Below, in pieces: positions 1 to 26,196 of a stretch of 64,000 bases of DNA. The first letter of the stretch is position 1, and every line of letters starts with the position of its first letter. The notes under the pieces are model-generated. The model was not told the origin of the DNA, searched no databases, and worked only from the letters and a program-made list of their open reading frames with translations. Made by a program: the position numbers and the translations under genes. The DNA comes from a virus. Location of the stretch: positions 32,001 through 96,000 of IMG/VR virus record IMGVR_UViG_3300046542_000271. The stretch is one strand, 5' to 3'.

Positions 1-882
1 CGGCTCCAATGGGGCGTTGAAATGGAAGTACAGATCACCAATGTAGCCCAGGCACTTGACTGGGTCGACGGTTACACGTACGAAGCGCTCGTACTGGATG
101 TTGTACTCGTCAGGGAGGTCGACAGTCGAACCCACAGCCTTCACAGTCGCGCCTGCCAGCGAGTAACGCTGGTTGGCTGTCATGGTCCAAGCGTGACCAG
201 TAATCGCCACCAGGGCCAGTCTGACGGCTTCCAGCTGCGCTGTACCCACCTGTACGGTGTCCAGGTTGGCGAATTGGGCAGAGAAGTCACGCCAGTACGA
301 GTAAACAGCGGCAAATGGCTTGGAGCTGTAGGTCGCTGGGTAATCGAAGGCACTGACGGTGACGTCGGTGAGGTAGTCCTTGAGCTGATAACCACCACGA
401 CGCATACCGACGGAGACGGTACCGATCCAGCCAAGGCTGGTAGGGTTGGCTTCCAGGGTGACGCTGATTGGGTTGTCGAGGTCTTTCTCCTCGGTAGTCA
501 GCGCACGCGAGACGATGTCGTCCGCGGTCAGGATCAGACCGTACTTCTTGTTAAGAGAAGCCACCACATCCATCGTGGTGTTGACCTCCATGACGTCTGC
601 CAGCAACGGGGTCTGACGGATCAACTCCTTCAAGTCCATCCGGTGGTAGTAGACGGTGACGGAGCCCTGGTACAGCGAGTACTGATCTTTCGCCGTGATC
701 AGCATCGAGGTATTGACTTTCTCGTCAATGGCCTTCTGCGCAGGCGTCAGCTCCTCAGGGAGGTCAAGGGGGTCGATAGCAGCAGGGGTACCGAAGAGGT
801 ATTGCTCCTCGACCAGGGCCAGACCGTTGAGTCGGTTGATGGACTCGAGGATCTGAGGAAACGTGGATTTATAAATAGCCAT
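1..882 (-). CDS. Virion structural protein, paralogous 'YxRLDL' family (3' end just outside window)
   Basis: Not in the ORF track. Hand translation from ATG at 882 gives MAIYKSTFPQILESINRLNG...YQGSVTVYYHRMDL...YQLKDYLTDVTVSAFDYP..., open to position 1, with the same motifs as its neighbours. Confidence 0.8.
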   Translation of the reverse strand, partial: MAIYKSTFPQILESINRLNGLALVEEQYLFGTPAAIDPLDLPEELTPAQKAIDEKVNTSMLITAKDQYSLYQGSVTVYYHRMDLKELIRQTPLLADVMEVNTTMDVVASLNKKYGLILTADDIVSRALTTEEKDLDNPISVTLEANPTSLGWIGTVSVGMRRGGYQLKDYLTDVTVSAFDYPATYSSKPFAAVYSYWRDFSAQFANLDTVQVGTAQLEAVRLALVAITGHAWTMTANQRYSLAGATVKAVGSTVDLPDEYNIQYERFVRVTVDPVKCLGYIGDLYFHFNAPLEP

Positions 883-890
883 GATTTACC

Positions 891-1784
891 TTAATCCTCT
901 TCAGGGACGATGATTTCGGTTTCGTTGTAGTGGAAGTAAGCGGTCCCTTCCTGTCTCCGTACGTACGGGTAATAAGGGTCGGCCACTTGTTGAATGATCA
1001 CGAACTCAAAGTCCTGACGGGCCTCAGGGCGATCCTTCGTCAAATACTGCGTGATCGTGTATCCCCATCCGGATGGCCAGGAGGTATACCCGAACAGGTT
1101 GCGCATCATGGTGGCAACCGCCGCCGAGTCAGAGAAGAACATCGGCAAGCGCGGGTTGAACCGGATGATCTCGCGGTATGGCGTGAAGTCTGTGCCATAG
1201 GTTGCCATGTTTACGGAATCTTTTACAGTAAACGGTGGAACGCCTGGACCGGGTTTCGGTGGTGCACGATACGTACGCCCCGCGTCCAGCATGGCATAGA
1301 GGTTTGGCTTCTTGACCACGTTAGCCAGGAAGATACGCCGGCGCGTGAAGCGGACAATGAAGTAACCCTGGTACGCCACACTCGAAGCTTTGGCTTCAAG
1401 CTTCAGGTTGGTGGTCTCGTCGAAGTCGAGCCAGCTGTAGTCAGCATCGAGGAAGTCGTCTTCTGACAACATGATGCCGAGGTGCTGAGACAGCCCTGGG
1501 AAGATCGAATAAAGGGTACCGCGACTCACCCCCTCGTATCGGGGAATGATGTCTCCAAACGCCTTGTTGAGGTCCATACGGGCATAGTTGACCGTCACGG
1601 TGCCTTGATAAGGGGAGAGGGGGCTGGAGATGGCTTTTGCGCGAGTATGAGTCGGGCCAGCCATGCCCACAAAAACAGGAGAGGTAAGCTTCAGATGGTC
1701 TGGCTCAATCGGAACCGGCAGCAGGGGAGACGCCGAAATCGCTTGAGCGAGGATATCTCTGCCAGGACCTGGGACCAGGATCAT
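891..1784 (-). CDS. Virion structural protein, same paralog family
   Basis: YQGTVTVNYARMDL motif; AAGGAG SD upstream. Confidence 0.75.
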   Translation of the reverse strand: MILVPGPGRDILAQAISASPLLPVPIEPDHLKLTSPVFVGMAGPTHTRAKAISSPLSPYQGTVTVNYARMDLNKAFGDIIPRYEGVSRGTLYSIFPGLSQHLGIMLSEDDFLDADYSWLDFDETTNLKLEAKASSVAYQGYFIVRFTRRRIFLANVVKKPNLYAMLDAGRTYRAPPKPGPGVPPFTVKDSVNMATYGTDFTPYREIIRFNPRLPMFFSDSAAVATMMRNLFGYTSWPSGWGYTITQYLTKDRPEARQDFEFVIIQQVADPYYPYVRRQEGTAYFHYNETEIIVPEED

Positions 1785-1822
1785 GAGATCGCTCCTTACA
1801 TGAACAAAAAAATAAACCAGGA

Positions 1823-1866
1823 TGACGCATAGCGAGAAGAGAACAAGTCTCCATCGCTATGCGTCA
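1823..1866 (-). terminator. GCATAG...CTATGC hairpin with downstream T-tract on minus strand
   Basis: tgacgcatagcga/tcgctatgcgtca inverted repeat; A-tract at about 1806-1817. Confidence 0.65.
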
Positions 1867-1877
1867 CGTCGAGCTAC

Positions 1878-2441
1878 TTACGGAGCTGGCTCTTCTGGAG
1901 GCGGCTCAGGGTAGTTCAGACCTTCCATCACTGGTTTGGTGATTACGGACGACAGAGGGATGTCATCAGCGGTCAGGGAGAGAGTCAACGACCCGATGAA
2001 TACCGGGCTGTCCGGGTTCATCTGGATGGTGATCTGCTTGGTTTCGTTCGGGGTACCTTCCCACGGACCGGCCTGCGTAACGATACTACCGTCGATGTAG
2101 TCATCTTCGGTGATGTTGGTACGCAGCTTGAGGTTGATCTCGGCCATCAGGTCCGAGAAGTTCTCAGCATCGCCGATACCCAGGGTCAGGGTTTCACCGA
2201 ACAGGAAGCCTTGGACGTCCAGACGGTTGTAGCCCAGGATCACTTGGCCGGTGTAACCCGAACCTGGCAGCGAGGTGACCGTCATGTCGGTGTTGTACAA
2301 CGCACCGGCAGTAGTAGTTACCGTTGGCAGGCCCAGCTCCACCAGGGTGTTATCGAGCGTGGTGCCGTTTTGCTCGTTGATGAGATCGAAGATGATCTCC
2401 TGAGGCAACTTGCTAAAATCACTGATGTGCTTAGCCATCAT
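1878..2441 (-). CDS. Virion structural protein, paralog family (single domain + C-terminal motif)
   Basis: DLINEQNG...YTGQVILGYNRLDV...IPLSSVITKPVMEGLNYP. Confidence 0.8.
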   Translation of the reverse strand: MMAKHISDFSKLPQEIIFDLINEQNGTTLDNTLVELGLPTVTTTAGALYNTDMTVTSLPGSGYTGQVILGYNRLDVQGFLFGETLTLGIGDAENFSDLMAEINLKLRTNITEDDYIDGSIVTQAGPWEGTPNETKQITIQMNPDSPVFIGSLTLSLTADDIPLSSVITKPVMEGLNYPEPPPEEPAP

Positions 2442-2482
2442 TGGTTCCTTCAGTAGTGAGGGTGTTCTACATAGGATCGAGC

Positions 2483-2977
2483 TTAAACGAGGCTAGTGTC
2501 CCGTTTAAGGTAGAGTCGTACAGACTCCGAATAGACCCTGGAGGTAGCTGATGCAAAGATCCGAACCAGGGTCCAGTCTTCGGCGTTCACCAACTTCGCA
2601 TTGAGGTCGATGTTGTCAACCGAGACCTCCTCAAGCTTGAGGTGCAAGGCAGCGTTAATGTACGTCAAATTCTCATAGAGGCTAGGACGCTTCCCGATCA
2701 CGACTCGAGGAATCTTTTCACACGCCGGGAGTAGTCGGCGCAATGGAACGCGGTTATAAAGGTAGGTCGCATTCCCTCGATAACGATCGCTCGTGGTGAT
2801 GGTCGCCACGATAGAGGTATCACGACCTTTATTAGCGTCGGCGCTCACAGCGGTTGGTGTACCCCACGACAGCTCCGAGGAGTTGATCGGGGCGTTCCCA
2901 TTCGAAAGCCGGATAATGTCCAGCATCAGACTGAGTTCTGGTTTGGTGTAATCGAATACGATAGCCACGGCGCTCAC
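2483..2977 (-). CDS. Virion structural protein, paralog family
   Basis: YRGNATYLYNRVPL; lacks the C-terminal motif. Confidence 0.7.
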   Translation of the reverse strand: MSAVAIVFDYTKPELSLMLDIIRLSNGNAPINSSELSWGTPTAVSADANKGRDTSIVATITTSDRYRGNATYLYNRVPLRRLLPACEKIPRVVIGKRPSLYENLTYINAALHLKLEEVSVDNIDLNAKLVNAEDWTLVRIFASATSRVYSESVRLYLKRDTSLV

Positions 2978-3504
2978 CTATTTGGCGGGTCTGGGTAATA
3001 GAGGCCGTCCAGCATGGTTTTAGTGATGATGTCCCTGAGCGGTATCTCTACTGGGTCAGTCGGGTCTTCCTCAGCAGCGAAGACATGAGTACCCACCCAG
3101 ATATACGACGACGCAAAGAACTTCACCGACCAGCCGGCATGTGTACGAGTCGCCAGCTGCACATGCGACAAGTCGAGCTCGACATTATAAGTGCTGGCGA
3201 AGTACACCGCAAGTTGCTGCGGTGTCTTCACTTCCTTTGGAATCAGGATCGTTGGATTACCCAACCCTTGAAGAAGGAGCTCTTGCGTCAACCGATTGTA
3301 ATAGAAGACTTGGTCTTTCTCGACCTTGTCGTGCACAGCGGTAGCCAGCACCACTGTGTTCATGCCATCGATGTCATCGGCCCTAGGTAGGGACAGCACC
3401 AGCGAACTCGCATCAAGCACGACATCGTAGCCTTCGATTACCTCCCTGTTCGTCGACACAATCATGTCGATTAGTTGCTGTTTCCCGTCCATATGTGTGT
3501 CCAT
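2974..3504 (-). CDS. Virion structural protein, paralog family
   Basis: GMNT...FYYNRL...IPLRDIITKTMLDGLYYP. Confidence 0.75.
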   Translation of the reverse strand: MDTHMDGKQQLIDMIVSTNREVIEGYDVVLDASSLVLSLPRADDIDGMNTVVLATAVHDKVEKDQVFYYNRLTQELLLQGLGNPTILIPKEVKTPQQLAVYFASTYNVELDLSHVQLATRTHAGWSVKFFASSYIWVGTHVFAAEEDPTDPVEIPLRDIITKTMLDGLYYPDPPNR

Positions 3505-9524: not shown

Positions 9525-9592
9525 TGGCTATTAGCTCGCTTGCCCTACACTCACTGGCCGAGTGTGGCAACTGTCAAATGCGGAGTGTATAA

Positions 9593-10057: not shown

Positions 10058-10239
10058 TACATGGGCGTACTCCGTATTCTTATGTAGGAAATATATCGCC
10101 CACATTGGGCGTGTTTCCAAAACCGAGTTCCAAGAACTTACGCCATGCGGGACAAGGATCGCTTTTACCAGTCGACTGGCATTAGACGGCGTCGATCCAC
10201 AAAAGCCTAGGCTATAAATCAAACGTTTGGAGTTTTTCC

Positions 10240-12393
10240 ATGAGTGTTCTCTCGCTGAAACGTAAGAACCGCTTCGCTGGCGCGACCGGTGTAAACATTG
10301 CCGACCTGAAAGCGGCCCAACAAAACAGCGCTATGTATAGCGTTGAATCGATGGACGTTGCCAAAGCTCTTAAAGATGGCAGCTTCGAATCCTTCGATCT
10401 GTCGTCCGTTGCCGATACCCTGCACAGCGTCCTGGAACCAGGTCAAACTGCCGGCGACTTCCGCAACCCTAACGGCATGGCCGTAGCTTCCATGATCGCA
10501 TCCCTGGGCCGTGCTGCTCCGGACTACCTGCGCATGGTTTCCACCGAAAGCGCCGCTCACAGCGATGGCCTGCCGTCCGCCCAAGCCTACGGCCTGGAAT
10601 ACGACAGCGTCTACTCCACCGAGTCGTTCGACAACCAGAACCTGACCGACCACCTGTCGATCTCGATCGGTCTGAACTACAAAATTTCCCGCCAAGGCCC
10701 GGCGATGGAAATGATCTACCGTACCATCCCTCTGACCCCAGAGCAAGGTACCGTGGAAGTGGAAGTGCCGAACCTGTACGTGCAGAACACTCTGCGCCAC
10801 GCCAACGACGGTAGCGAATCCGACTTCGGCCTGCGCCGTGTGATCGACTCGCACATCGACTACCAGGTTCTGAACGACAACTGCACTCAGCTGGTTCCTG
10901 GCCACAACGGTCAAACCGCTGCGATGTTCGTTCCGACCTCCGTCGTTACCCCGTTCGAATACAAGTCCGGTCGTCGTACCGTTCTGACTTCGGCTCTGCA
11001 AGTGGGCAAGACCATCAACCTGTTCGGCGTCGGTCAAACTGACGCAGTGAGCCGTGTTGGTCAAGCTGACTACACCGAAGCACTGGATCGCAACATCGGT
11101 ATCGAATCCGTGTTCGTGACCCTGGGCGGCGACACCATTCGCTGGGATACCCGCGGCCTGCCGTTCTCCCGCTTCTACAAAGGCCCAGAGCAAGGCAACC
11201 GCGCTCTGAAGCTCGACTTCCCGCTGACCACCCTGGTGATCAACAAGGATACCGTCGACTACGCTGGCGACGCACTGACCGATCCAGTGTTCGACATCAT
11301 CGCCACCGGCGAATACAGCGTTCGTCTGCGCACTACCCTGAACGGTACTGCCGACGTTGAGCGTGGTACTGTCAACATCAACCCAGCTAGCCTGGAAGTG
11401 ATGTCGATCACCAACAAAGCTGGCGAGCAGATCTCCCTGACTGGCACCGTTGGCGCGTCCATCGTTACCGGCCTGGCTGGCCTGAAGACCGAAGGCTGGT
11501 GGCCAGACGCTCGTCTGACCAACTCCAACCATCGTCACCTGGGTCTGCTGCTGAACGTCCGTTCGGTGAAAGAACGTCTGATGACTCGCGTTCGTTCCCC
11601 GTTCTTCGTTCCGTACCCAGTGTCGGAAGATCGCGACCAGACCGTAATGGACTGGCTGACCTTCGCTGTAGGCGCGTACATCAACAACGAAGCTGTTGGT
11701 TCGATGATCGGCTACCACGAGCGTCTGATGCGTCTGACCGGCGGCCTGCGCGGCGAGCTCACCATCGGTGACTTCGAAGAAAACGCCATGCCGATCGAAG
11801 GTATCGGTCGCTACCTGATCAACCCTTACGTCCAGACCTTGAAGGTCAACGTGAAGGGCAATGCTCAGAGCACCAACACCGTCGACAACATCAAGAACGG
11901 CCAAGAAGTTCTGCTGAACGTAATCCGTTCGGTATCGTTCGATATCCAACAGCGCACCAACTACGAAAACGCCTGCCGTTACGTAGATGGCGGTGAAATC
12001 TCCAAGGCATGGAAAGTTGCCCTGGTCACCAGCAAGAAGATCGAGCGCTTCATGACCGTGTCCGGCGACAGCCGTACTCTGGGTGCTGGCCTGCCGTTCC
12101 AGCTGGAAAGCGACGTCGACGCACGTCTGGACAAGCGTATCTACATGACGCTGGTTCGTGAAGGCGACGGCATCGACCCACTGAGCTCCGGCGTAATGCT
12201 GCTGACTCCTACTCTGGTATCGACTCTGTCGGTTACCCGTGACAACGCGCCTCGTCAAGAAGCCGTTGTTCAGCCGCGCTTCCAACACTACAACCTGCTG
12301 CCGATCGTTGTCATGATCGAAGTAGACGGTGTGGACGAGCTGCTCGAAGAGTCGCTGCCTTTTCGTGTGGAAAACACTGAAGTTACTCCTTAA
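10240..12393 (+). CDS. Major capsid protein (phiKZ gp120-like)
   Basis: 717 aa with very strong codon bias; N-terminal S-x-E processing sites (SVE, SFE, STE); position next to the helicase. Confidence 0.85.
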   Translation: MSVLSLKRKNRFAGATGVNIADLKAAQQNSAMYSVESMDVAKALKDGSFESFDLSSVADTLHSVLEPGQTAGDFRNPNGMAVASMIASLGRAAPDYLRMVSTESAAHSDGLPSAQAYGLEYDSVYSTESFDNQNLTDHLSISIGLNYKISRQGPAMEMIYRTIPLTPEQGTVEVEVPNLYVQNTLRHANDGSESDFGLRRVIDSHIDYQVLNDNCTQLVPGHNGQTAAMFVPTSVVTPFEYKSGRRTVLTSALQVGKTINLFGVGQTDAVSRVGQADYTEALDRNIGIESVFVTLGGDTIRWDTRGLPFSRFYKGPEQGNRALKLDFPLTTLVINKDTVDYAGDALTDPVFDIIATGEYSVRLRTTLNGTADVERGTVNINPASLEVMSITNKAGEQISLTGTVGASIVTGLAGLKTEGWWPDARLTNSNHRHLGLLLNVRSVKERLMTRVRSPFFVPYPVSEDRDQTVMDWLTFAVGAYINNEAVGSMIGYHERLMRLTGGLRGELTIGDFEENAMPIEGIGRYLINPYVQTLKVNVKGNAQSTNTVDNIKNGQEVLLNVIRSVSFDIQQRTNYENACRYVDGGEISKAWKVALVTSKKIERFMTVSGDSRTLGAGLPFQLESDVDARLDKRIYMTLVREGDGIDPLSSGVMLLTPTLVSTLSVTRDNAPRQEAVVQPRFQHYNLLPIVVMIEVDGVDELLEESLPFRVENTEVTP

Positions 12394-12457
12394 AAACGTG
12401 GCGCCGATCCAGAACCTTGGAACGGTACCGCTGCCTAGGGTAGCGTAAGTGTCAAAT

Positions 12458-12497
12458 GCATAAAAGCCCCTGGGTTCACTCCCAGGGGCTTTTATGC
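12458..12497 (+). terminator. GCATA...TATGC hairpin terminator
   Basis: gcataaaagcccctggg-ttcact-cccaggggcttttatgc, perfect stem. Confidence 0.85.
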
Positions 12498-12505
12498 TGT
12501 CTATG

Positions 12506-12533
12506 CTTTTATAGCAATACATTATCGTGATGC
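12506..12533 (+). promoter_or_regulatory. Putative phage early promoter for the nvRNAP operon
   Basis: ttttatAGCAATACATtatcgtgaTGC. Confidence 0.55.
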
Positions 12534-12583
12534 AGGGTAGATTCAATGAACTCGATGTAATTCTTTAAGGCAGGCAACTAACT

Positions 12584-13804
12584 ATGGATATGGGAATCTC
12601 CAAGCGACAGGCCAAAGGCAACGGTTCATCTGGCGTGGTATTTCGTAACAACGAAAACGCTGGACCAATCGTGATCACCAACCAGTACCTCAATTACGGA
12701 TTGACATACACCATCACCAACCTCACGGGCCGGTCAGTATATGTCAAAGACCGACTGGGTACTCTGGTTGAAATCAAGCAGGGCCGTGGCAAGGTAGAAG
12801 GCGTCATTTGTATTGAGGTGGTCTGGAAAGCGGGAGTGGAACAGATCCGGGCCTTAATGGAACAGTATTCGCGCTATAGCGCCATCAATGAGTTCTGCCG
12901 TAACGCAGAAGAAGCCCTTTACCTCTTTCTGAAGAATAGTAGTAATTCTTCACCATCTATGCGTATCTTTATAGATGAGGAGTTGCTGCGTTCGCGTAAC
13001 GACGCAATCTATCAACCTGATCTCGATTTACTCCTTATGTTCGCCACTCGTATCGAGACCGAGCATCCATCTAGCCCATTGTCGCGATTCCGTGACGGTG
13101 GAGACCAATCCGTCAAACTCATCAACAGCTGTGGCGCTGATGCGCTGATTTATGCCATCGAGGCAATCGACAACTCCATCCACCAACGTTACAAAGACAA
13201 ATATCTGTACATCGGCGACGAAGTCTACCATGTCCCGGTCCAACATAAACCTGGCTCGCCTCACTGCGGATTCATTGTGACACGCAATCGTTCAGCAGAT
13301 GAGATCAACAAGAACCTAGAACCTGGTAAACGGTATATCCGTGAACTTATGTCCTTTACTGATGCTGCCAGGAAGTTTGGGGTAGCTGATACGGTGGAGG
13401 AAGCCAGGGCCATGGGTGATCTAAAGCTTCAGTCTGAGGCCAGGATCGCCGAGCTACAGATGCGCATCAAAGAAACAGATACACAAAACACGCTGCTAAA
13501 GCGTGAAATAGAAAATACCAACACGGAGCGTGATCGCGAGAGCGGTAACGTCAAATACAACCGGGAGCGAGAGAAGAATGATGAAGAGTTCGCATTCCAA
13601 CGAGAGAAGTGGCAGCGAGAGCGCGAGAAGTTAGACCAGGATTCTGCCCTCGCTAGGGAGAAATACGAGCGGGAGCGGGACAAAGCTTTGCAAGACGCAG
13701 CAAGGGATGAGATCAAGAACACGTATGAATGGATCAAGGTCCTCACTGGGGGCTTGGCAATCCTCGGTACGTTTTTAGGGTTGAGTCGACTTAAATTGGC
13801 TTAG
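12584..13804 (+). CDS. Hypothetical protein with charged coiled coil and C-terminal membrane anchor
   Basis: E/R/K-rich heptads, then WIKVLTGGLAILGTFLGL. Confidence 0.75.
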   Translation: MDMGISKRQAKGNGSSGVVFRNNENAGPIVITNQYLNYGLTYTITNLTGRSVYVKDRLGTLVEIKQGRGKVEGVICIEVVWKAGVEQIRALMEQYSRYSAINEFCRNAEEALYLFLKNSSNSSPSMRIFIDEELLRSRNDAIYQPDLDLLLMFATRIETEHPSSPLSRFRDGGDQSVKLINSCGADALIYAIEAIDNSIHQRYKDKYLYIGDEVYHVPVQHKPGSPHCGFIVTRNRSADEINKNLEPGKRYIRELMSFTDAARKFGVADTVEEARAMGDLKLQSEARIAELQMRIKETDTQNTLLKREIENTNTERDRESGNVKYNREREKNDEEFAFQREKWQREREKLDQDSALAREKYERERDKALQDAARDEIKNTYEWIKVLTGGLAILGTFLGLSRLKLA

Positions 13805-13825
13805 TAATAATGCGGGATCTCGCGG

Positions 13826-15478
13826 ATGGACATTGAACTTTTCGACGAAATGCAAGAGGGGAAACCAGTCTTTGATCAACGGATCTTGGACGGCATGGCA
13901 TATAGCGGGTTACAGGACGCTAAGGGCGAAGTCGATCGCCTGATTGGGTGTGCCAGACGTAGCTTCCCTCAAGATTTCGAATACCTGGGGTCGTCTATTT
14001 GTCCGCCACAGGAAGCCTATTTGGTAATGGCTTCTATTAAACGACGTGGGGAGTCGTCGGTGGACCTTGCGCCAAGCGATGTAGTGCTGTGCAAGTATGA
14101 GTTTGCGTTTGAAGGGCTTCCGCTGAAGGACCGTTACTTCTTCCTCCCTTATGTTCGCAAGGGCGGATTCATCAAGATCGCGGGTAAGCAGTTTGCTATC
14201 AGTCCTGTGCTCGCAGATCCAGGCTTCTCGGTGGGTGAAGATTATGTCTTCATCCGGATGAACCGCGCGCCAGTCAACTTCAAGCGGATCATTTACACGA
14301 TCGACATCAACGGGGAGAAAGTCTCCAAGTATGTCGTTCACTCCAAGCTGCACCATAGAGCCGGTAATCGCGACCGTAAACACGGCAGCGATGTGATTCA
14401 CGTAGGGCGGGTGATTACGACCATCCCTCATTACCTGTTCTGTAAGTACGGCCCAGAGGAAGCCTTCAAACGCTTTGGTCACTGTGATGTCCACATCACG
14501 ACTGAGGCGGAATTGGCAGAGTCCCCGATGGACCCGGAGAAATACACGTTCATCCGCAGTCGGAAGGTTGCTCCTTCTACATTGAAGAAGATCCATAACT
14601 ACGCGATGAATGCATCGCCTGTGGTGTTGGTATTCGACAAAGCTCAAATGGCTGGCAAGCAGCACCTGGTCGAGGGTCTTGCGGCTGGGTTCTTCTACAT
14701 GGTTGACCACTTCCCTGAAGTGACTGAACGCAAGGAACTGGCTGACCCATTCACCTGGAAGCTGTGGCTGGCGTATGTTCTCTTCGGGGATCAGCTGGGC
14801 TACGGTAAGTTGGTGGAGAACGTTGATTCTCACCTCAACAGCCTGGATGACTACGTGGACGTTGAAGTCCGCCGTACGCTCCTGGATGAAGAGGAACTGG
14901 AGTTCGATGACATCTACCAACTGTGCTCTCACATCCAAGAGCACATGGATGACATCATCCAGCGCAAAGGGACTGACATCGCGAGCATGTACGGTAAACG
15001 GCTGATGACAGCCAACTACGTGCTGCGGGATATCTTTGAACAGATCTTCCGTTGTGTGTTCGAGATTACCAAGAACCGCAAGCGCAAACTGACCAAGGAG
15101 GATTACAACAAACTCCTCGGGAAGTATTTCATTCCTGAAAAGATCCATGAATTACGTAACACCGCTACGAAGGCATACGTCTCCTCGGTCTCCTCACCGA
15201 GCGACAACATGTTCTTCAAGGTCACCAGCCGTCTGGTAATGCAGGCACACACTGGCACCAGTGGCAAGAGTCAGAATGTGAACGTTCACGATCCGATGTC
15301 GCACCTGCACGAATCTACGGCAGAATGTGGCAACAGCTTGGTACTGCCCCGCAACAGTCCACTGGCTCGGAATACCATCAACCCTACCGCATGGCTGGAC
15401 TCGAAGATGACTCTTCTGAAGAAGCCTCACATGCGTGGGGTGATTGAGTACATCGGCGAACATATTCACCGCAATTAA
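13826..15478 (+). CDS. Non-virion RNA polymerase beta-like subunit, N-terminal part (phiKZ gp123-like)
   Basis: FLPYVRKGGFIKIAGKQFAISPVL (beta region A/B-like), SMYGKRL, LHES...G motifs; gene order. Confidence 0.75.
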   Translation: MDIELFDEMQEGKPVFDQRILDGMAYSGLQDAKGEVDRLIGCARRSFPQDFEYLGSSICPPQEAYLVMASIKRRGESSVDLAPSDVVLCKYEFAFEGLPLKDRYFFLPYVRKGGFIKIAGKQFAISPVLADPGFSVGEDYVFIRMNRAPVNFKRIIYTIDINGEKVSKYVVHSKLHHRAGNRDRKHGSDVIHVGRVITTIPHYLFCKYGPEEAFKRFGHCDVHITTEAELAESPMDPEKYTFIRSRKVAPSTLKKIHNYAMNASPVVLVFDKAQMAGKQHLVEGLAAGFFYMVDHFPEVTERKELADPFTWKLWLAYVLFGDQLGYGKLVENVDSHLNSLDDYVDVEVRRTLLDEEELEFDDIYQLCSHIQEHMDDIIQRKGTDIASMYGKRLMTANYVLRDIFEQIFRCVFEITKNRKRKLTKEDYNKLLGKYFIPEKIHELRNTATKAYVSSVSSPSDNMFFKVTSRLVMQAHTGTSGKSQNVNVHDPMSHLHESTAECGNSLVLPRNSPLARNTINPTAWLDSKMTLLKKPHMRGVIEYIGEHIHRN

Positions 15479-15505
15479 TCGAATTGAAACTGGAGCGCAA
15501 CTAAC

Positions 15506-17431
15506 ATGGCTATGACCCGCGACGAACAAGCCCTTTGGGATGGCATTGCTGACGAAGCAGTACGCTACATTGACGAACGCGCTGATGAGCGCGGTGCAAG
15601 TGAACTGCGTGTGCGTTATGCCGAGATCCTCGGCAAGAACAACTACGCTAACCGCGACTTCGAAGCGTTGATCGATTCGATGTTCGACGGCTTCCGCAAC
15701 ATCGAAGAAGAATACGCGCGTTCCAACGATCGCCTGGAAGACTTCCTTCCGAAAGCGGTACAGGACGTGGTCGATGGTCACTTCGCCAACAGTGTGCTGA
15801 GCAATCGCCGCACTGCTGACGAGCTGGACAATCGCACCTATGCCGAAATGGAAGACATGGTCAAGCTGTACAAGGACCTGTTGGGCGGTCGTAGCCGCGG
15901 CGGTGGACGTGGTGACCGTGGCGGTCGAGGTGACCGCGGTGGTCGTGACGAGCGTGGTGGTTCTGGCTATAGCCGTGGTGGCCGTCAGGAACGCAGTCGC
16001 AGCACCGAGAACCTGGGTCGTACCAGTGGCGGTGGCGGTGGTGGCTGGCGTAATCAGAAGGCCGCTCGTACCAAAGTCGCTGCTGGCGATCATTGGGCAG
16101 AAGCTGCGCGTGATGCGCGGGATACCGATGATCGTGAAGAAGCATCCCGTCAGGTGGAAGAAGTTCGTCGTCCAGCCGCCGCCAAGCCGCTGATCGCTGA
16201 CTCTCCTCTGGCACCGGTGGAATCCCGTCCAGTGTTGGAAGGTCCGGATTACACCAAGGCTCGTCCGCATGACGAGTTCCTGCAAGATGGCGAGCACTGG
16301 AAAGTTGCTTCCAAGTCGGGTTGGGCTATTCCGTTCGACTATCAAAACCCACTGGCCAGCGTACCGAAGCTGTACGATGTCCGTACCCAAATCAAATACC
16401 ACGTAAAGAATGTAGACGGCAAAGTCCGTGAGGAGCTCGTTAAAGTGAATGATGACAACCGTTACCTGGCTCATGAAGGCATGCAGCAACCTGAGCGCTA
16501 CCACTCGACTAACCGTCGGGCTACTCCGGCCGTTTCCCTGTCGGGCGCCAAACCTGCCGCTGGTGATGACGACCTGAATCAGGTTGATGTAAAACCGGTT
16601 GTCACCAATCTCCAGGAATCCCTGGGCAATCTCGATCGCAACCAGTTCGAGATCGGCGAGAACGGTGCTCCTCTGGGCGAAACCCTCAACGGTCTGGTGT
16701 TCAACACCCGCGTGAAGATGGTTGCTGGTAAGGACGCTCAGCGTCTGAACATCTGCTACCGTCACACGGCGCTGATCGCCACCTCCTGGGAGCAGGAAGC
16801 GCTGATCCAGCGTATCTACGGCTCCAACAACCTGTCGGCTGCTGCGCAATCCCTGCGTGATCTGAAGGGTGACTTCGACGTCACCATCTGGAATGAACTG
16901 AACAAGCGCTTCTCGGACCTGGTCCTGCGTGCCGTTCGCTTCCAGTTCCAGCACAACTCGGTGAAAGCCATGTCGTTCGCCAACGACTGGGAGAAACTGA
17001 TCAAGCACCTGGAAGGCACCAAAGGCGAAGGCTTTGCTTCCGACTTTGCTCAGCGCACTTCGTACATCATCCCAATGGCCTGCGCTATCGCTGGCCGTGA
17101 CGATCTGTCGGCGTTCACTGAACTGCCAGAAGGCCAAGAAGCTCCGTGCGTAGTGTTCCTGGATTCGACTGCAATCGTCGCCCTGGACTCGACTCTGGAC
17201 GCTCTGGGTCTGGGCAAGCAGCTGCTGGAAATGGAAACCGGTGCCAGCATCACGGCTCAGGCCGATGCAGCTCTGAACACCGTCGTACGCGGTCTGTACA
17301 GCAAGCTGGACGACAAAGCGCCAAGCGCTGGTGCCACTCGTGTGTACCTGAACACCAACGACGGCGCCATCCTGGAACTGATTCCGTTTGCCGCTCGTAA
17401 GGAAAACTTCATCTTGGCAGTCGTCAAGTAA
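15506..17431 (+). CDS. Hypothetical protein with internal RGG/Gly-rich region
   Basis: 641 aa with strong codon bias; RGGRGDRGGRGDRGGRDERGG. Confidence 0.8.
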   Translation: MAMTRDEQALWDGIADEAVRYIDERADERGASELRVRYAEILGKNNYANRDFEALIDSMFDGFRNIEEEYARSNDRLEDFLPKAVQDVVDGHFANSVLSNRRTADELDNRTYAEMEDMVKLYKDLLGGRSRGGGRGDRGGRGDRGGRDERGGSGYSRGGRQERSRSTENLGRTSGGGGGGWRNQKAARTKVAAGDHWAEAARDARDTDDREEASRQVEEVRRPAAAKPLIADSPLAPVESRPVLEGPDYTKARPHDEFLQDGEHWKVASKSGWAIPFDYQNPLASVPKLYDVRTQIKYHVKNVDGKVREELVKVNDDNRYLAHEGMQQPERYHSTNRRATPAVSLSGAKPAAGDDDLNQVDVKPVVTNLQESLGNLDRNQFEIGENGAPLGETLNGLVFNTRVKMVAGKDAQRLNICYRHTALIATSWEQEALIQRIYGSNNLSAAAQSLRDLKGDFDVTIWNELNKRFSDLVLRAVRFQFQHNSVKAMSFANDWEKLIKHLEGTKGEGFASDFAQRTSYIIPMACAIAGRDDLSAFTELPEGQEAPCVVFLDSTAIVALDSTLDALGLGKQLLEMETGASITAQADAALNTVVRGLYSKLDDKAPSAGATRVYLNTNDGAILELIPFAARKENFILAVVK

Positions 17432-17522
17432 ACCAGTGACTCGATCTTCTACCCTGCGAAGTGTCGATCGAGTCATTACTCCCATTAACCCCTAACAGCT
17501 TACACAAACGTTTGTCTAATCC

Positions 17523-19435: not shown

Positions 19436-20311
19436 CTACGGAATAACGTTCAGGGTAGGAATCGAAGCAGTACCCAGCAGCGGCAGTTGGTTACCCAGGT
19501 CAAAGTCCAACGTCAGCTCTTGGCTGTTGTAGTACAGTGCCTTGTGGTCCATCGAGTAGCTGTAGGCCTGACATCCGATTGCTTCCAGGAAGTTAATCGA
19601 GCCGGAAGTACTTGGGACAGAGACGGTGCGGTCAGCGGCTGTGCAGAGTGCGAACTCCGACATGATGGCGTAACGCTCATCACCGTTGTGCATGATCTTG
19701 GCGGCGTTGATGAATTCTTCGATAGCCACTTCATCGAGACGCACGCGGATCACGCAGCTAACCGACAGGCTGACGTCAGTGGTGGACACTGCGCCTTTTA
19801 CTGGCAATTCAACCGGCTCTGGGTAGAGGTCAGCAGTAGAAGGAATGAAGACCGCTTCAGTGGTCTGGCCATTCTCCACGGTGATCTTCTTCATCACCAC
19901 GGTCACGTCAGCTGGATCGATGTCCATGCGCATGCCGTAGTAGGCGTAGTAGTTCACGCCACTGACCATCATTTCCTTACGCAACGCGTACTTGTCGCGC
20001 AGCACCTTAGGCAAGTCATCGTCGATACGACGCAGTGCGAAAGGTACCGGGTTGTAGGTCGACGCGTGGTTGGCCAGGTGGTCGATCACGGAAGTCAGTG
20101 CGATACCGCCATCGCCTGCTACAGCGCGGTGGCCTTTGTTACCCACGGTCATGATGCCGAGGTAGACCTTCTCACCGTTCGTTGGACGAGCAGCGTCCTG
20201 GATACCCAGGCGTTCGTTGAAGGTGGTACGCGATGGAATGACAGGCGTGTGACCCAGGAGGAGGTGGACCAGAGTTTTGGCACCATACAGGGTGGATTGG
20301 ATAGTGTTCAC
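19436..20311 (-). CDS. Probable virion structural protein (tail/baseplate region)
   Basis: Codon-biased ORF in the late structural cluster. Confidence 0.65.
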   Translation of the reverse strand: MNTIQSTLYGAKTLVHLLLGHTPVIPSRTTFNERLGIQDAARPTNGEKVYLGIMTVGNKGHRAVAGDGGIALTSVIDHLANHASTYNPVPFALRRIDDDLPKVLRDKYALRKEMMVSGVNYYAYYGMRMDIDPADVTVVMKKITVENGQTTEAVFIPSTADLYPEPVELPVKGAVSTTDVSLSVSCVIRVRLDEVAIEEFINAAKIMHNGDERYAIMSEFALCTAADRTVSVPSTSGSINFLEAIGCQAYSYSMDHKALYYNSQELTLDFDLGNQLPLLGTASIPTLNVIP

Positions 20312-20320
20312 GGATCAACC

Positions 20321-21364
20321 TCAATGTTGGAAGAGTGGCGTGACAGACGACGGGTTGAACTGCTGGTTAGTCGGTGTAGCCGGAGATGAGTACCGGTAAC
20401 CGATCCGCAGTATGCCACTCAGATTCCGACACAGGTCACCGAGTTCGATAACCAAGACGTAACTGTAACGGCTGTCGTCAGCACTGTATTCAGGAGTGAC
20501 CAGCCCGTTATAGAGGATGGTACTGTTGTAAAAATTGAAATCCGATGCAGTGTCTGGCGTGTAGTGCCAGAGGTCACCCGTCAGCGCAAACAAGACGCCT
20601 GTAAGGCGGTTGGCTACGTCGACGATCGGACCGGACTTCTGTTCATAGAGATAGGCTGCGGTCTTCTTGGCATCACCCAACGGGGTCTTGATGAACTCAG
20701 CAATGAACAGACGACCCTGAGGAAGGTACAGATCGATAGGAGGACGACCTACCGCACCATCCTTATAGAAGTCACGGAAATCCATGCGGCGAGCGATGGT
20801 GGTATTCAGCAACGCAAGCGCAGGGCGGACCAACACATGCAGATAACCGAAGAAGACCAAGTGGTCGTCAAAGGTGATCTTGAAGTTACGGTCCAGATCA
20901 GGATCGGGTGCAAACGCAGGCTCAGTGACCTTATTAAAGCCAGTGAGGTACGGTTGAGTCATGCGGGTGGTGATGTCAGACTGATCTGCATCCAACCCAC
21001 CGTAGATCTCCTGGATCTGGATGTGTCCAGGTTCTAGCATCACGCCACATTGATCGAAGATCGCCTGGAGCAACGCTGCATCATCAGCCAGGTCAGTGGC
21101 ATTGATCACCAGACGACTCAAATCCGCGTGGCGATTAGCCTCGATGCGGTAGTAAGTCATCGGGCGTTGTTCGTCAGACCAACCCAGGTCAGTGCGGAAC
21201 ATCAACTTGACTTCAGTCTTGCCTTCACTGTCGAGAGCTTCAGGATCACTGAAGACCAACTGATCGGCAGCCAACTGGGTTCCGTTGAACGTGTTGATCA
21301 TCTCAACCAGCAATTGCTTGCTGGACTTATTGAAACGATTCAGAGGGGAAGCGCAGTTACTCAT
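20321..21364 (-). CDS. Virion structural protein, paralog family
   Basis: EMINTFNG...FSDP...TYYRI; internal DITTRMTQPYLTGF motif; C-domain resembles that of ORF 1-882. Confidence 0.7.
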   Translation of the reverse strand: MSNCASPLNRFNKSSKQLLVEMINTFNGTQLAADQLVFSDPEALDSEGKTEVKLMFRTDLGWSDEQRPMTYYRIEANRHADLSRLVINATDLADDAALLQAIFDQCGVMLEPGHIQIQEIYGGLDADQSDITTRMTQPYLTGFNKVTEPAFAPDPDLDRNFKITFDDHLVFFGYLHVLVRPALALLNTTIARRMDFRDFYKDGAVGRPPIDLYLPQGRLFIAEFIKTPLGDAKKTAAYLYEQKSGPIVDVANRLTGVLFALTGDLWHYTPDTASDFNFYNSTILYNGLVTPEYSADDSRYSYVLVIELGDLCRNLSGILRIGYRYSSPATPTNQQFNPSSVTPLFQH

Positions 21365-21380
21365 CAATCTGATCTCTGAA

Positions 21381-21845
21381 TTACGACAGTTCAACCTGGA
21401 ACGAGCCTGTCCAGAACAACGAGAGCGGAGCTGCCTGGATCGTCGACACTCGCTCAAGCAAGTTATCTTCGACCACGTCGTCGGCAGTCAAATAGAAGCT
21501 ATCGTTGGATCGCAGGGTGCTCAGGATAACTGACGAGTTAGTTGGGGCCACTACCTTGAGTTTGGTGGCTGTGAACCACTCACTCATCTGAAGGCGCTTG
21601 TATCGCACCGTGAGGGAGCCCGTATGGACACGGGCTACTGATTCACTGGTGGAGTCAAACGTTTCAATCAGGGCAACGGCATTCACACCATCGCTTTCGA
21701 TGACCGTAGCTTTTGCAAACTCCGGTCGTAGACGCAAGTTAAAGGCGTCATTCACCATGATCAAGAAACCCTCCACCGGAGGGTACTTGACATAGCGTTC
21801 GATGCGATGGAAGGGCACTTCACTGATAGTGTCCATCTTGTTCAT
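21381..21845 (-). CDS. Virion structural protein, paralog family (single domain)
   Basis: HTGSLTVRYKRLQM...SLFWTGS. Confidence 0.7.
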   Translation of the reverse strand: MNKMDTISEVPFHRIERYVKYPPVEGFLIMVNDAFNLRLRPEFAKATVIESDGVNAVALIETFDSTSESVARVHTGSLTVRYKRLQMSEWFTATKLKVVAPTNSSVILSTLRSNDSFYLTADDVVEDNLLERVSTIQAAPLSLFWTGSFQVELS

Positions 21846-21859
21846 CGGTCATCGTCCTG

Positions 21860-23941
21860 TTACGGTTCAGGAGTGGGTGGAGGAGGATAGCTCAGACCGT
21901 TAGGCGTCTTAACGAAGATGACGTCCTTCAAGTCTACGCCGCCTGGTGGTTTGCCTTCAAAGCCGTCGAGTCTAGGCAGGACAACTTCAGAAAGCTTCTT
22001 CTTCAGGTGAACGGTTTCAAAACCATCCAGCTTAGGTTTCCAGAGCGCCTCAGTCAGACGGTGCTTGGTTTTACCTTCGAAGCCATCAAGCGTTTCAACC
22101 TCTTCAGACAGCAACTTCAACTTATCGCTGTCGTAGCCATCCAACGCCGGTGTCTCGATCAATTCAGGCAGCAGGTAGCGCTTGTCTGATTCGAACCCAT
22201 CCAGGGCTGGAGTATCAACTACTTCAGGTAGGAGTTTCAGTTTGTCACTGTCGTAGCCATTGAGTGCGCGATCAACGATCTCCTCAGAGAGCAGGTGACG
22301 CTTATCGGACTCGTAGCCGTCCAAGGTCCGTACATCAATGACCTCAGGTAACAGTTTCAACTTGTCGCTGTCAAACCCGTCTTGCTGAGTGACCGGGAGG
22401 TCATTCTCGAGCAGCTTCTTCTTGTCAGACTCGAAGCCTTCCTGAGCGGTGGTGTGTAAAGTCTGCGACAGTCTGCGGGTGAGGTTAGACGTCCACCCGT
22501 CAAGCTGGGTGATCTCCAGTACCTGCGAGAGTGGCCTGCGCTTGTCAGATTCAAATCCGTGTTGCGATCCCTGAAATGCTTCAGAGATAAGCTTGCGCTT
22601 ATCGCTATCGAAACCATCCTGTTTCGGCAGATGGAACTCATCCGACAGCGGTCGGTGCTTTTCGGAGGTGAATCCGTCCAGATAAGGTTCAGGTGTCCAT
22701 TCGCCGATTGGCAGTTTCTTAATGGACTCAAAGCCCATAATGAACGGCGTGCGAGTGAACTCACCGATAGGCATCTTCTTAACGGATGTGAATCCATCAA
22801 GGTAAGGCTTACTGGTGCAGGTCCTGATATCCGGCGCTGGGAATGGAGGAACAAATCCATCCAGCTTAGGCGCGAGCAACTCCAGCGGCATCTTGCAACC
22901 GAACTTCAGGACGAAACCGTCCAAGACGTTGTCGAAGACTTCAGTCGCCAAGTCAATCTGGTTCGACTCATCCCAGATAACCAGTTCGACGTAGATGTCG
23001 CCGACGGTGGTCAAGGAGTTCGGCGTGGTAGTCAGGCGGTAAATGCCTTTCTCCACCAGAGTACTTGGGAGTGTTGCCCAGTTGGAGATGTCGCTTTCGA
23101 CCAAGCCCGTATCGAACTTGAAGTTGATGGCATCCAGTACCTTAGCCCTGGTCACCACACCACCTGTTGCTACCCTGACCGCATGGCGGTAGGTTGGGGT
23201 GTAGGATTTGCGCTGATACGTGAAGTCCATCGACCCGGTGAAATCACCGCCGACGCCTGTCAGTGTAATCTTGGTGTTCAGGCCGTTGTCATCCGGAGAG
23301 ATAACGGTAGGCCCAGAGGTAATGCGGAAATCCTCCGGCCGAAGCTGGTAGGGTTCTTCGTACGACGAGTTGTGGTTCTCTATCGCTTTCAACAAGACCT
23401 TTAAGAAGTCGTCTGAGCGGAAACCCGTCGAGAATGGAATAAAGATCGCTGTGTTCGAGAAGAACTCTTTGAGGAGGTAAGCTTCACGAATCAGTTGTAA
23501 CGCAACCGACCCCACCCAACGAGGTGAGGTTTCCGGGGCAGAGATGACGTAGCTACCGGCGGTTTCAGTCGTGAACAATGTCACGTCGTCCGCACTGACC
23601 GGTATATCGTGCTTCGCTAACAATCGACTGAGGATGTCGACCGAGCTCACGGACCCCTTGAACTTCACCGTCTTGTCCACCCCCGTTAGAAACTCGGTCA
23701 GGTTAAGACGTTTGAACTGGAAGGTTAGAGGGTCCTTGAACTTGGCACTGATTGCAGGTGGCGCGTAGAAGCTGCTGAACGTCATTTCCGCCAGAGCATC
23801 TTTGGAAGTCGGTACACCCTTTGGGCGAATGTTCTCAATGACGAGCCATTCTTTATTTACCCAGGATGGCAGATTATCCAGAAGGATCTGCTTAACCGCT
23901 TCCAAAGAGTCCATCTTGAGAAGGGATTCTGGCGTACTCAT
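21860..23941 (-). CDS. Virion structural protein: two family domains plus about 18 tandem ~20-aa repeats
   Basis: FQFKRLNL and FTYQRKSY domains followed by an (L/Q)DG(F/Y)xS array. Confidence 0.8.
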   Translation of the reverse strand: MSTPESLLKMDSLEAVKQILLDNLPSWVNKEWLVIENIRPKGVPTSKDALAEMTFSSFYAPPAISAKFKDPLTFQFKRLNLTEFLTGVDKTVKFKGSVSSVDILSRLLAKHDIPVSADDVTLFTTETAGSYVISAPETSPRWVGSVALQLIREAYLLKEFFSNTAIFIPFSTGFRSDDFLKVLLKAIENHNSSYEEPYQLRPEDFRITSGPTVISPDDNGLNTKITLTGVGGDFTGSMDFTYQRKSYTPTYRHAVRVATGGVVTRAKVLDAINFKFDTGLVESDISNWATLPSTLVEKGIYRLTTTPNSLTTVGDIYVELVIWDESNQIDLATEVFDNVLDGFVLKFGCKMPLELLAPKLDGFVPPFPAPDIRTCTSKPYLDGFTSVKKMPIGEFTRTPFIMGFESIKKLPIGEWTPEPYLDGFTSEKHRPLSDEFHLPKQDGFDSDKRKLISEAFQGSQHGFESDKRRPLSQVLEITQLDGWTSNLTRRLSQTLHTTAQEGFESDKKKLLENDLPVTQQDGFDSDKLKLLPEVIDVRTLDGYESDKRHLLSEEIVDRALNGYDSDKLKLLPEVVDTPALDGFESDKRYLLPELIETPALDGYDSDKLKLLSEEVETLDGFEGKTKHRLTEALWKPKLDGFETVHLKKKLSEVVLPRLDGFEGKPPGGVDLKDVIFVKTPNGLSYPPPPTPEP
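21885..22957 (-). repeat. Coding tandem repeat, ~60-nt unit, about 18 degenerate copies
   Basis: e.g. DKLKLLPEVIDVRTLDGYES / DKLKLLPEVVDTPALDGFES / DKRYLLPELIETPALDGYDS. Confidence 0.9.
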
Positions 23942-23964: not shown

Positions 23965-26196
23965 TTAAAGTCCGAGGAACATCTTCCGTCGAGTGTCAGT
24001 CAGGACATCATACCCACCCGTCATGATGGGGAACGAAGACCCAATGAAGAGGTCCGCGTAACTCATCCGCTCAGGCTCAAGGTAATCGAGCGTGAGTGTC
24101 CGATCGCCAGAGATGTCGGTGACAGCCTCGGGGATCAGCTTGAGAGTCGGTAGGGCGAAGTCCATGCGGGTAACGAGTGTTCCCCGACCTAACAGTTTGA
24201 TGTTTGCGACGACCGGGATTTTACCGGTGACCATGTCCAGGGTAGAGCGGAAGTCCACTCCAACGTTGGCCTTGATCTTGTCATGCCGGCGCTCATACGA
24301 ATCGACGTCCAGGATAGTGGGTGGGTCGATGTCGATCAACTTGTGTTCGGTTTCATCCAGTTTCGGAATCGACTGCTTAGGGAACTTCCCGTCCACGATC
24401 TTGACAGGGTTGTCGTTGATCGTCTTGATGAACTGCACCGAGTAGGACGAAAGCGCCTGCATGATGCGGATCATCGAAGCATGGATCTGACGAACGCTGT
24501 TCACGTTACTGAGGTCAGCACCGGTAATCGAGTTGAAGATCGTGCTATACATCAGCTGATATTCAACACGTCCCATGGTGGCAGTGTCGATCCCCATCTC
24601 GTTGAGCCAGGAGTCGTAGGACTGCTCCTTCGCCAGGTCGATCCGGATGTCCTGGTAGAACCGATCCACCACAGTGTGCAGTTGACCTTCCGCTCGCCAG
24701 TCCTGGTAGTAGCAACGGAACTTACGGTGGTCCAACATCTTGCGGTGGATGTCGACACAGAGTTCCCGGAAAGCTTCCACCGAGACGTAACGCGTGATAG
24801 GTGCCTGGTCCGTCAACAGGTGATGGATGGCATAGTCTGGCACACGTTTAGGTTCAGCGAACTTCCTGAGCTCTGTAAACGTCGGCAACGGCATACGACG
24901 AACACGGTTGGCCGACAGAACCGGCACCTTATCGAGTGTGATCCCGATAGCCTTGTTGTACGCATAGATGTAGAAGATGAAGGCGTTCTTGGCCGTCAGC
25001 TTAAACGTATCCCCGTTACTCGGGTTGGTGATCGACATTACGGTGTTGTAGCGACCGAAGTGCGACAAGTACAGCCAGTGGTTCAACAAGACGTCAGTCA
25101 GGGTGAACGGGTCCGCGTCAGCACGGTCAAGAACGTTGGAGTCCAGGACCTTGGTGATGTGGGTACTGGTCTTGGCATGAACCGATCGCTTGGTAACGTC
25201 GATCTCATGGTCGTCCCGGTATGGCGTGTTACCCCTGGCGATCCCGTCTTCCATGTCGAGGATCTCGCCCACGGATTTATCGGTAGCGCCGTTAGCAGGT
25301 TCGATCCCGTTGAGGGTTTCCTGCTGGAGCTCAACCACAGGCTTGAGCGTCGTGGTGGTTTTGTCATACACATGACTCAGCTTAAAGCCGGACAGGTTGA
25401 AACCACGATCCGTCAGCACCTTCTCGGTGGTGAGCTTGAGGATCTCTTCACGCCCCAGGTTACGGTTGAGGTAACGGATGTTGCGGTACAGCCACAGACG
25501 CAGCTTACGCGTCATGTAGTCGAACTCTTTACCGACTGCACTGAACGAGGTCAGGTATTGGCGCACGTAGAACGTATGCACGTAATCGGTTTTACACATC
25601 TCTTTACGAAGCGTGACAATCCACAGCGGAAGCTTCGTGTAGAGGACACCCAACAAGCCCGTATAGTAGAAGGGTTCGAACAGACCGTAGTCCCGGTTAT
25701 CGCGTTGCAGGAAGTACATGTCGATGTAACGCTGAACCCGTGGGATCAGGTACTCTTCACCTTCCTCGACTTCCTTTTTGTCATGCCACAAGATCTTATG
25801 GTCTTCTGACGTAACTGCGGTCTCGATATCGATGGGGTTCAGGATACCGTTGATCAGCGCTTGCTGGTCAGGATACCTGGCTACCAGGTCTTTATAATAG
25901 ACCGAACCGTAGGCGTATTCGCGCTTCGTACCACGGTGCTCTGCTAAGGTCACAATGTCGAATGGGATCTCTTCCTGGGTGTCCAGGGAAACCACCGTCA
26001 TGTCGGTATCCGACTCGTGGTACGTACCCGCCATGTTGAGGTAGTACTTCCAAGTGTACGGATTGTCTCGATCCACCTTGTACCCTAACTGGGTCACTTT
26101 GGTGTTGAGGAGATCAGCTGTACTCGCACTCTTTATTAAGAGCGTAGCCGCCAATTTCAATGTGCTCTTGATATAGAGCCGGTAATGGGCATTCAT
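23965..26196 (-). CDS. Virion structural protein (phiKZ gp128-like)
   Basis: 743 aa; WKYYLNMAGTYH motif; head-to-head with the probable portal. Confidence 0.65.
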   Translation of the reverse strand: MNAHYRLYIKSTLKLAATLLIKSASTADLLNTKVTQLGYKVDRDNPYTWKYYLNMAGTYHESDTDMTVVSLDTQEEIPFDIVTLAEHRGTKREYAYGSVYYKDLVARYPDQQALINGILNPIDIETAVTSEDHKILWHDKKEVEEGEEYLIPRVQRYIDMYFLQRDNRDYGLFEPFYYTGLLGVLYTKLPLWIVTLRKEMCKTDYVHTFYVRQYLTSFSAVGKEFDYMTRKLRLWLYRNIRYLNRNLGREEILKLTTEKVLTDRGFNLSGFKLSHVYDKTTTTLKPVVELQQETLNGIEPANGATDKSVGEILDMEDGIARGNTPYRDDHEIDVTKRSVHAKTSTHITKVLDSNVLDRADADPFTLTDVLLNHWLYLSHFGRYNTVMSITNPSNGDTFKLTAKNAFIFYIYAYNKAIGITLDKVPVLSANRVRRMPLPTFTELRKFAEPKRVPDYAIHHLLTDQAPITRYVSVEAFRELCVDIHRKMLDHRKFRCYYQDWRAEGQLHTVVDRFYQDIRIDLAKEQSYDSWLNEMGIDTATMGRVEYQLMYSTIFNSITGADLSNVNSVRQIHASMIRIMQALSSYSVQFIKTINDNPVKIVDGKFPKQSIPKLDETEHKLIDIDPPTILDVDSYERRHDKIKANVGVDFRSTLDMVTGKIPVVANIKLLGRGTLVTRMDFALPTLKLIPEAVTDISGDRTLTLDYLEPERMSYADLFIGSSFPIMTGGYDVLTDTRRKMFLGL

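Follow-up and report, generated by a model that had tools for sequence, protein, structure and literature searches.

A DUF7941 protein of phiKZ-like jumbo phages ending in 18 copies of a family linker motif, a candidate multivalent anchor for baseplate fibres

Members of the DUF7941 family (PF25613) include gp126 and gp127 of phage phiKZ, gp22 and gp23 of phage Goslar and paralog family B of phage SPN3US. In a preprint on Goslar, the DUF7941 protein is divided into an N-domain, a 'disordered linker' and an optional C-domain, and AlphaFold3 predictions for gp22 and gp23 have the linker, together with the C-domain if present, dock onto the following subunit's N-domain (10.64898/2026.04.21.720040). 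The same preprint reports gp22 filaments in negative-stain electron microscopy (EM), fits a gp126-gp127 dimer to unexplained density of phiKZ and proposes a cloud of fibres anchored at the baseplate (10.64898/2026.04.21.720040). In phiKZ, gp128 is a baseplate wedge protein, and dimers of gp139 make up a band that connects this wedge with gp127 on the outer baseplate (PMC13250141). The family amounts to thousands of protein copies per Goslar virion, and its architecture is known from predictions and low-resolution images only. Here we describe a DUF7941 gene found at positions 21,860 to 23,941 of a 64,000-nucleotide stretch of viral DNA (positions 32,001 to 96,000 of the IMG/VR record IMGVR_UViG_3300046542_000271; hereafter the window, to which all coordinates refer unless another record is named). 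The product of this gene, called the target below, ends in a tandem array of what appears to be the family's own linker motif. Although the family, its location and the docking model are already on record, no description exists of the tandem linker array, of its conservation or of its apparent independent recurrence, and a member with many linkers is absent from the descriptions in the Goslar preprint.

The target open reading frame (ORF) is genuine: translation from the ATG at 23941 gives 693 residues, and the orthologs likewise begin with MSTPESLL. It matches DUF7941 over two stretches with 76.5 bits (cut-off 27) and phrog_1037 with an E value of 5e-28. The linker motif that follows the N-domain strand is present past the second module and is then followed by 17 more copies. 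Anchors of the form [DEHMN]G[FYW] lie at aa 341, 361, 382, 402, 422, 442, 461, 481, 501, 521, 541, 561, 581, 601, 619, 639 and 659, with 18-22 aa from anchor to anchor (20 being commonest), and a last copy, NGL-SYP, lies at aa 681. These are the 17 plus one copies that an earlier note on this DNA, made from the letters alone, had counted at the end of the protein. The consensus of the internal units is L-x-E-x-[LIV]-x4-L-D-G-[FYW]-[DE]-S-D-K, and a hidden Markov model (HMM) derived from the units finds 17 separate units on the target at 13-28 bits each. The array is undetectable at the nucleotide level; Tandem Repeats Finder returned nothing on the DNA and identity between units averages 40% (maximum 68%), which indicates that the array is old. 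The highest identity is that of units 11 and 13, which suggests an older duplication step of two units (40 aa); across units 11-14 (21947-22360) an L-K-L-L-P-E-V type alternates with an R-x-L-L-[SP]-E type. The features of the gene and of its surroundings are collected in Table 1.

Table 1 Features of the target gene and related or neighbouring genes in the window.
Feature	Positions	Strand	Evidence or remark
Target CDS, 693 aa	21860..23941	-	DUF7941 N-domain, predicted ordered linker, second DUF7941-like module, array of 18 linker-motif copies, Pro-rich end
N-domain 1, aa 1-152	23486..23941	-	AF2 (AlphaFold2), Foldseek, VIA-align; predicted fold is that of the phiKZ gp127 N-domain, outer peripheral baseplate
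Inter-module linker 1, aa 153-181, AYLLKEFF..IFIPF	23399..23485	-	Near-invariant columns in orthologs; predicted ordered
Second, more divergent DUF7941-like module, aa 182-327	22961..23398	-	Pfam, own family HMM (domain 2), AF2
17 internal linker-motif units of ~20 aa each, aa 328-665	21947..22960	-	Anchors, unit HMM, paralog matrix
Terminal canonical copy, aa 668-687, VDLKDVIFVKTPNGLSYP	21881..21940	-	Present in 14/14 orthologs
Pro-rich C-terminal tail (PPTPEP) and stop codon	21860..21880	-	Like short single-motif paralogs
154-aa N-domain-only DUF7941 protein	21381..21845	-	Without linker; candidate client or cap
347-aa full-length DUF7941 paralog	20321..21364	-	N-domain, linker, C-domain
Five more DUF7941 paralogs (1-882, 891-1784, 1878-2441, 2483-2977, 2974-3504)	1..3504	-	Near end of a paralog block that extends upstream of the window
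phiKZ gp128 homolog, baseplate wedge protein	23965..26196	-	Upstream of the target
DUF7208 protein, homolog of phiKZ gp139 / Goslar gp32	19436..20311	-	

The earlier note had recognized eight paralogs with a common domain, most of them with one copy of a motif right after it. All eight, the target included, score above the Pfam gathering threshold for DUF7941 and match phrog_1037, and the single post-domain copy was found in most of them. Two members that the note gave as motif-less, ORFs 2483-2977 and 21381-21845, do stop just past the final domain strand. Motif-less N-domain-only members exist and could act as the caps that the note had made of them. Its tip subunits with extra C-domains had to be given up; in the paralogs of ~290 aa the extra region is simply the C-terminal half that an ordinary DUF7941 module has, which the preprint predicts to dock together with the linker. 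This half is optional, being absent from Goslar gp23 and phiKZ gp126, and the target gives no match to the corresponding model positions 176-276 and has the array in its place.

Several comparisons indicate that the repeated unit is the post-domain linker motif of the family. The Pfam alignment pairs aa 182-344 of the target with DUF7941 model positions 11-171, which identifies array unit 1 as the native post-domain linker of module 2. A BLOSUM-averaged matrix made from nine paralog linkers, none of them from the target, gave 11 peaks at or above the score threshold of 8 on the target array, all within the 20-aa register. The same matrix gave a mean of 0.07 peaks (maximum 2) on shuffles (n=2000), and on the non-family ORFs (55,029 residues) only five positions reached the threshold. 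A weakness of this test is that the nine linker motifs were picked by eye out of the family alignment. A closely similar motif lies immediately past the last N-domain strand in Goslar gp22, gp23, gp31, gp33 and gp34 and in FLC9 gp326, and in Goslar gp23 nothing beyond that motif follows the N-domain. The terminal unit of the target has the canonical GL-x-YP and the Pro-rich end, both of which are retained in all orthologs. Taken together, the Pfam alignment, the matrix peaks and the likeness to the Goslar and FLC9 motifs bear out the earlier note's identification of the repeat with the motif of its paralogs.

When 1.84 billion cluster representatives were searched by HMMER for the array by itself, just four real clusters came up, the target's own, P0035, P0036 and P0039. 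P0035 has the architecture of the target at 34% identity, and in P0036 and P0039 one N-domain precedes ~17 units, each 19 aa long and of the near-canonical sequence L-x-x-V-I-T-x-x-x-L-D-G-F-D. Four other matches (P0037, P0038, P0040 and P0041) were put down to chance; none of them has DUF7941, and at least P0037 is a low-complexity EAERRRL repeat. In a collection of 50,697 phage records, tblastn with the whole target gave no match at 1e-5 and with the array none at E 1, megablast of 8 kb against the phage records gave nothing, and the GenBank phages of the collection have no detectable array. When P0036 was compared with cultured phages the match was confined to the N-domain, and FLC9 gp326 has a single linker. 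The array appears, on these comparisons, to have arisen independently in two jumbo-phage lineages.

The second lineage is that of IMGVR_UViG_3300037721_000031 (266.6 kb), in which positions 8001-13896 hold a cluster of six DUF7941 genes. One encodes an N-domain and 17 units, another an N-domain and 9 units, two encode an N-domain only and two an N-domain plus a further C-terminal domain, which in one case has a weak SPRY match (E 0.0026, below the Pfam threshold) and in the other no Pfam match. The two array proteins thus bring together 26 linker sites, and the other four genes have an N-domain but no linker. Under the docking model such linker-less clients would join an assembly only via the linker of another protein, because they have none of their own. 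We regard this cluster as the strongest circumstantial evidence that scaffold and clients form one system. The record also carries a clear chimallin homolog (E 1.4e-28).

Because the full-length AlphaFold2 model of the target was too poor for fold work (mean pLDDT 34.9), a truncated model of aa 1-372 was used (mean pLDDT 74). In this model N-domain 1 has block pLDDT values of 50-89, lowest at the extreme N-terminus, and module 2 has values of 60-90. The PDB held a single clear match to the model, the N-domain that gp127 has in the phiKZ baseplate. Foldseek paired N-domain 1 with 9xqd_0 at an E value of 2.7e-8 and a target TM score of 0.72, and VIA-align superposed residues 1-151 of the model on the gp127 N-domain with Z 11.7 and an rmsd of 3.2 Å over 143/150 residues. 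Sequence searches of the PDB with the target and with a 294-aa paralog were empty. Linker 1, which leads in cis into the second module, is predicted to be ordered with a pLDDT of ~78-85 and contains a helix (H157-160) and a strand (E165-168). Within module 2, aa 154-246 of the model look like a beta-sandwich with weak Ig, cadherin and S-layer matches (Z 3.4-5), and aa 246-327 resemble the C-domain of ribosomal protein L9 (Z ~6-6.8). We set aside both the Ig/cadherin-like and the L9 likenesses, since VIA-align scores of Z 3.4-6.8 are below a trustworthy level.

Given a thread of proposed docking peptides attached to a baseplate-type N-domain, we lean, with slightly better than even confidence, to the view that the target is a multivalent anchor that recruits DUF7941 N-domains, either by stringing clients together or by seeding many filaments. 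The target would be a peripheral-baseplate DUF7941 member of phiKZ-like jumbo phages, with N-domain 1 corresponding to the gp127 N-domain at the outer edge, and its last 365 residues would form an unfolded thread with 18 copies of the linker motif. If the single-copy linker peptide clips onto the N-domain of the next DUF7941 subunit, then each copy on the thread would recruit one N-domain. The 154-aa protein next door and other N-domain proteins that lack a linker could be strung along the tail, or many DUF7941 filaments could begin from one attachment point. Our guess is that the 154-aa protein is the natural first candidate client, given its gp126-like position and its unusual conservation. 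It is 70-89% identical in the relatives, with residues 11-63 almost invariant, whereas the adjoining array protein is 62-80% identical; such conservation would fit a surface that serves many partners. Complex prediction of the 154-aa protein with target residues 528-587 gave a score of 0.00, which in a run made without controls weighs neither way.

The plug-and-socket assembly that the earlier note had deduced equals the current published model of the family, with its AlphaFold3 docking and its gp22 filaments, since the motif sits in the segment predicted to dock on the next N-domain. The hub of that assembly has to be turned around, as it would hold 18 plugs rather than 18 sockets. A natural protein with 18 copies of the proposed docking peptide is a direct handle on the docking model and leads one to expect a simple stoichiometry, with many N-domains to a single thread. 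If the reading is true, it would explain how very many fibres are held by few baseplate sites, and fibre valency could evolve through gain and loss of repeat units; if it fails, the linker-docking model itself would come into doubt. A bolder version, which we put forward tentatively and rate somewhat below even, makes the target an inverse scaffoldin. In this version a baseplate-anchored thread with 9-20 plugs, having arisen twice, would gather a mix of DUF7941 caps, chain extenders and lectin-tipped binders, and copy number would set the valency or length of the fibres.

Several points weigh against the anchor. When the repeat HMM was run on all ORFs of the contig, as the earlier note had suggested doing with a profile of the repeats, the paralog linkers scored 1-3.5 bits, equal to a reversed-sequence control, so only the converse test, the paralog matrix on the array, is significant; the best matches of four paralogs nonetheless fell on or beside the linker motif. 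In the internal units the canonical x-[YF]-P end is swapped for [DE]-S-D-K, which may affect docking. The family docking model consists of AlphaFold3 predictions and low-resolution EM in a preprint, and the binding of internal copies, their occupancy and the choice of partner paralogs are inferred. Occupancy may be partial, since units spaced by 20 aa leave little room for each to hold a domain of 150 aa. Lastly, the virion location of the family is disputed: proteomics of SPN3US detected family B in tailless particles and assigned it to the head (PMC5694885), whereas phiKZ and Goslar place the family at the baseplate. For the target itself the baseplate evidence is good.

Of the other explanations the one that survives best, which we nevertheless consider unlikely, is that the array is a flexible spacer. 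The terminal canonical copy would be the sole working plug of a disordered tether, and the internal units would be decayed duplicates that set its reach (~100 nm extended). The survival of GL-x-YP and of the Pro-rich tail of single-motif paralogs in the terminal copy only is what a spacer would give, as are an array predicted to be unstructured and a copy number that varies among orthologs. The comparison across relatives called for in the earlier note did show such variation. The orthologs are 62-80% identical and 594-777 aa long, with length differences that are rough multiples of 20 aa, and have 12-19 internal anchors plus the terminal canonical copy (13-20 copies). However, in 219 units from 14 orthologs the positions L(-11), E(-9), [LIV](-7), L(-2), D(-1), G, [FWY], [DE], S, D and K are kept; L-11, [LIV]-7, L-2, D-1, S+3 and K+5 are each retained in 58-80% of the units and E-9 in 42%. 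A pure spacer would have no reason to hold L, D, G, F, S and K in place in each unit, yet these residues persist at a mean nucleotide identity of 40% from unit to unit, which indicates that each copy of the array is under selection. In addition, 11 internal or terminal units score as linker motifs, and an unrelated lineage retains 17 near-canonical units.

A second alternative, which we hold improbable, is a self-assembling fibre shaft, in which the 20-aa units would form a beta-rich rod, possibly as an oligomer or with calcium bound via D-G-x-D-S-D, and would not be docking sites. The regular period with its conserved glycine, aromatic and acidic residues would suit a shaft, and predictions made on monomers are blind to folds that depend on oligomers or metals. 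Against this, the array has no secondary structure in the full-length AlphaFold2 model, with pLDDT below 40 across the 17 units (24-37, in a model that is poor as a whole), and units 1 and 2, which the truncated model includes, remain under 50 there, whereas the folded modules, which fold well without the array, reach 74-90. A Pfam scan of aa 345-693 detected no repeat family, an ESM Atlas search with the array gave a best score of 0.76, which is below a useful level, and the unit is demonstrably the inter-subunit linker of the family. As modelled, the array fits a peptide that orders only upon a partner domain and does not fit a solenoid; the self-folded solenoid that the earlier note had named as fatal to its proposal left no sign. 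Equally improbable is a multivalent protein with a partner outside the DUF7941 N-domains, be it a further baseplate protein (the gp139-like band, for instance) or a polymer on the host surface. A disordered thread with short conserved motifs would suit any multivalent ligand, but the motif to which the unit is homologous is proposed to bind the N-domain, and both lineages with arrays also have N-domain genes that are expanded or lack linkers.

Goslar gp22 and gp23 share with the target the Pfam family, a closely similar motif after the N-domain and the proposed docking of the linker, and the Goslar neighbourhood gp35-gp34-gp33-gp32-gp31 can be read against the gp128-like protein, the target, the 154-aa protein, the 347-aa protein and the gp139-like protein here. 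The Goslar subunits modelled have one linker and form linear head-to-tail chains, whereas two N-modules with 18 linkers would give a branched or templated assembly. In phiKZ (PDB 9xqd; PMC13250141), gp127 has the N-domain that superposes on N-domain 1 of the target and, like the target, adjoins gp128 and is followed by an N-domain-only gene of similar size (gp126, 147 aa, versus 154 aa). Unlike the target, which has no C-domain and an 18-copy array and comes from genomes with 25-29 DUF7941 matches, gp127 has one linker and a C-domain and phiKZ has three family members. Paralog family B of SPN3US belongs to the same Pfam family (PMC5694885, PMC5105663); 20 members are reported (PMC5694885, PMC5105663), and we found 17 DUF7941 matches, including the gp138-144 block. 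SPN3US gp155 (positions 1670-3847 of locus L013) resembles the target in its two N-terminal DUF7941 modules, but it has a Gly-rich domain at its end and no array.

Outside the family the likenesses are those of principle. As in a cellulosome scaffoldin, one chain with many docking sites would gather varied clients, but this is an analogy only and the polarity is reversed, in that the target scaffold bears short peptides and the clients bear the globular domain; at E values up to 0.1 the target has no Pfam match, to cohesin, dockerin or anything else, except DUF7941. Chaperone-usher pili resemble the proposed system in that a short segment would complete or bind the domain of the next subunit to give head-to-tail polymers. 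They differ in that the sole clear structural match of the target domain is phiKZ gp127 and in that the segment is C-terminal in the target; no incomplete Ig pilin is among the structural matches listed for the target model, a list that does not exclude such a fold. The Klebsiella jumbo phage phiKp24, with its hyperbranched tail fibres, is reported to multiply its receptor-binding elements by branching from few baseplate sites (PMC9700779). The proteins are unrelated, and the branches there come from folded fibre proteins that dock on each other rather than from a peptide array.

The order of the genes supports the baseplate assignment of the target. The gp128-like gene is followed by the target, the 154-aa N-domain-only gene, the 347-aa full-length paralog and the gp139-like gene, an order which parallels phiKZ (gp128, gp127, gp126) and Goslar (gp35 to gp31) and is kept in two complete relatives of 264 and 267 kb (G001 and G002). 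A chimallin-like ORF was found in both relatives through a bridging query, phiKZ chimallin as a direct query giving no match in either. The PHROGs label of phrog_1037 and phrog_2935 is 'head and packaging', whereas phiKZ cryo-EM puts gp127 on the outer baseplate; the label probably traces to the SPN3US tailless-mutant proteomics and may mislead annotators. An assignment of the family to the tail-fibre paralogs gp131-gp135 of phiKZ was rejected, as gp131-135 have no DUF7941 match whereas gp126 and gp127 do. Elsewhere in the window, two large ORFs without a PHROG match at 1e-5 (10219-12546 and 15194-17485, both on the minus strand, 775 and 763 aa) lie amid replication and transcription genes (helicase 7983-9524, polymerase-type 13826-15478).

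DUF7941 is expanded in these genomes. The contig of 112 kb from which the window comes has 26 ORFs with the domain, and the two complete relatives have 29 and 25 matches, versus 3 in phiKZ and 10 in Goslar. The 26 ORFs lie at 8.4-35.5 kb of the contig (G000), that is, upstream of the window and at window positions 1-3504, and at window positions 20321-23941; two of them (369 and 371 aa) are two-module proteins.

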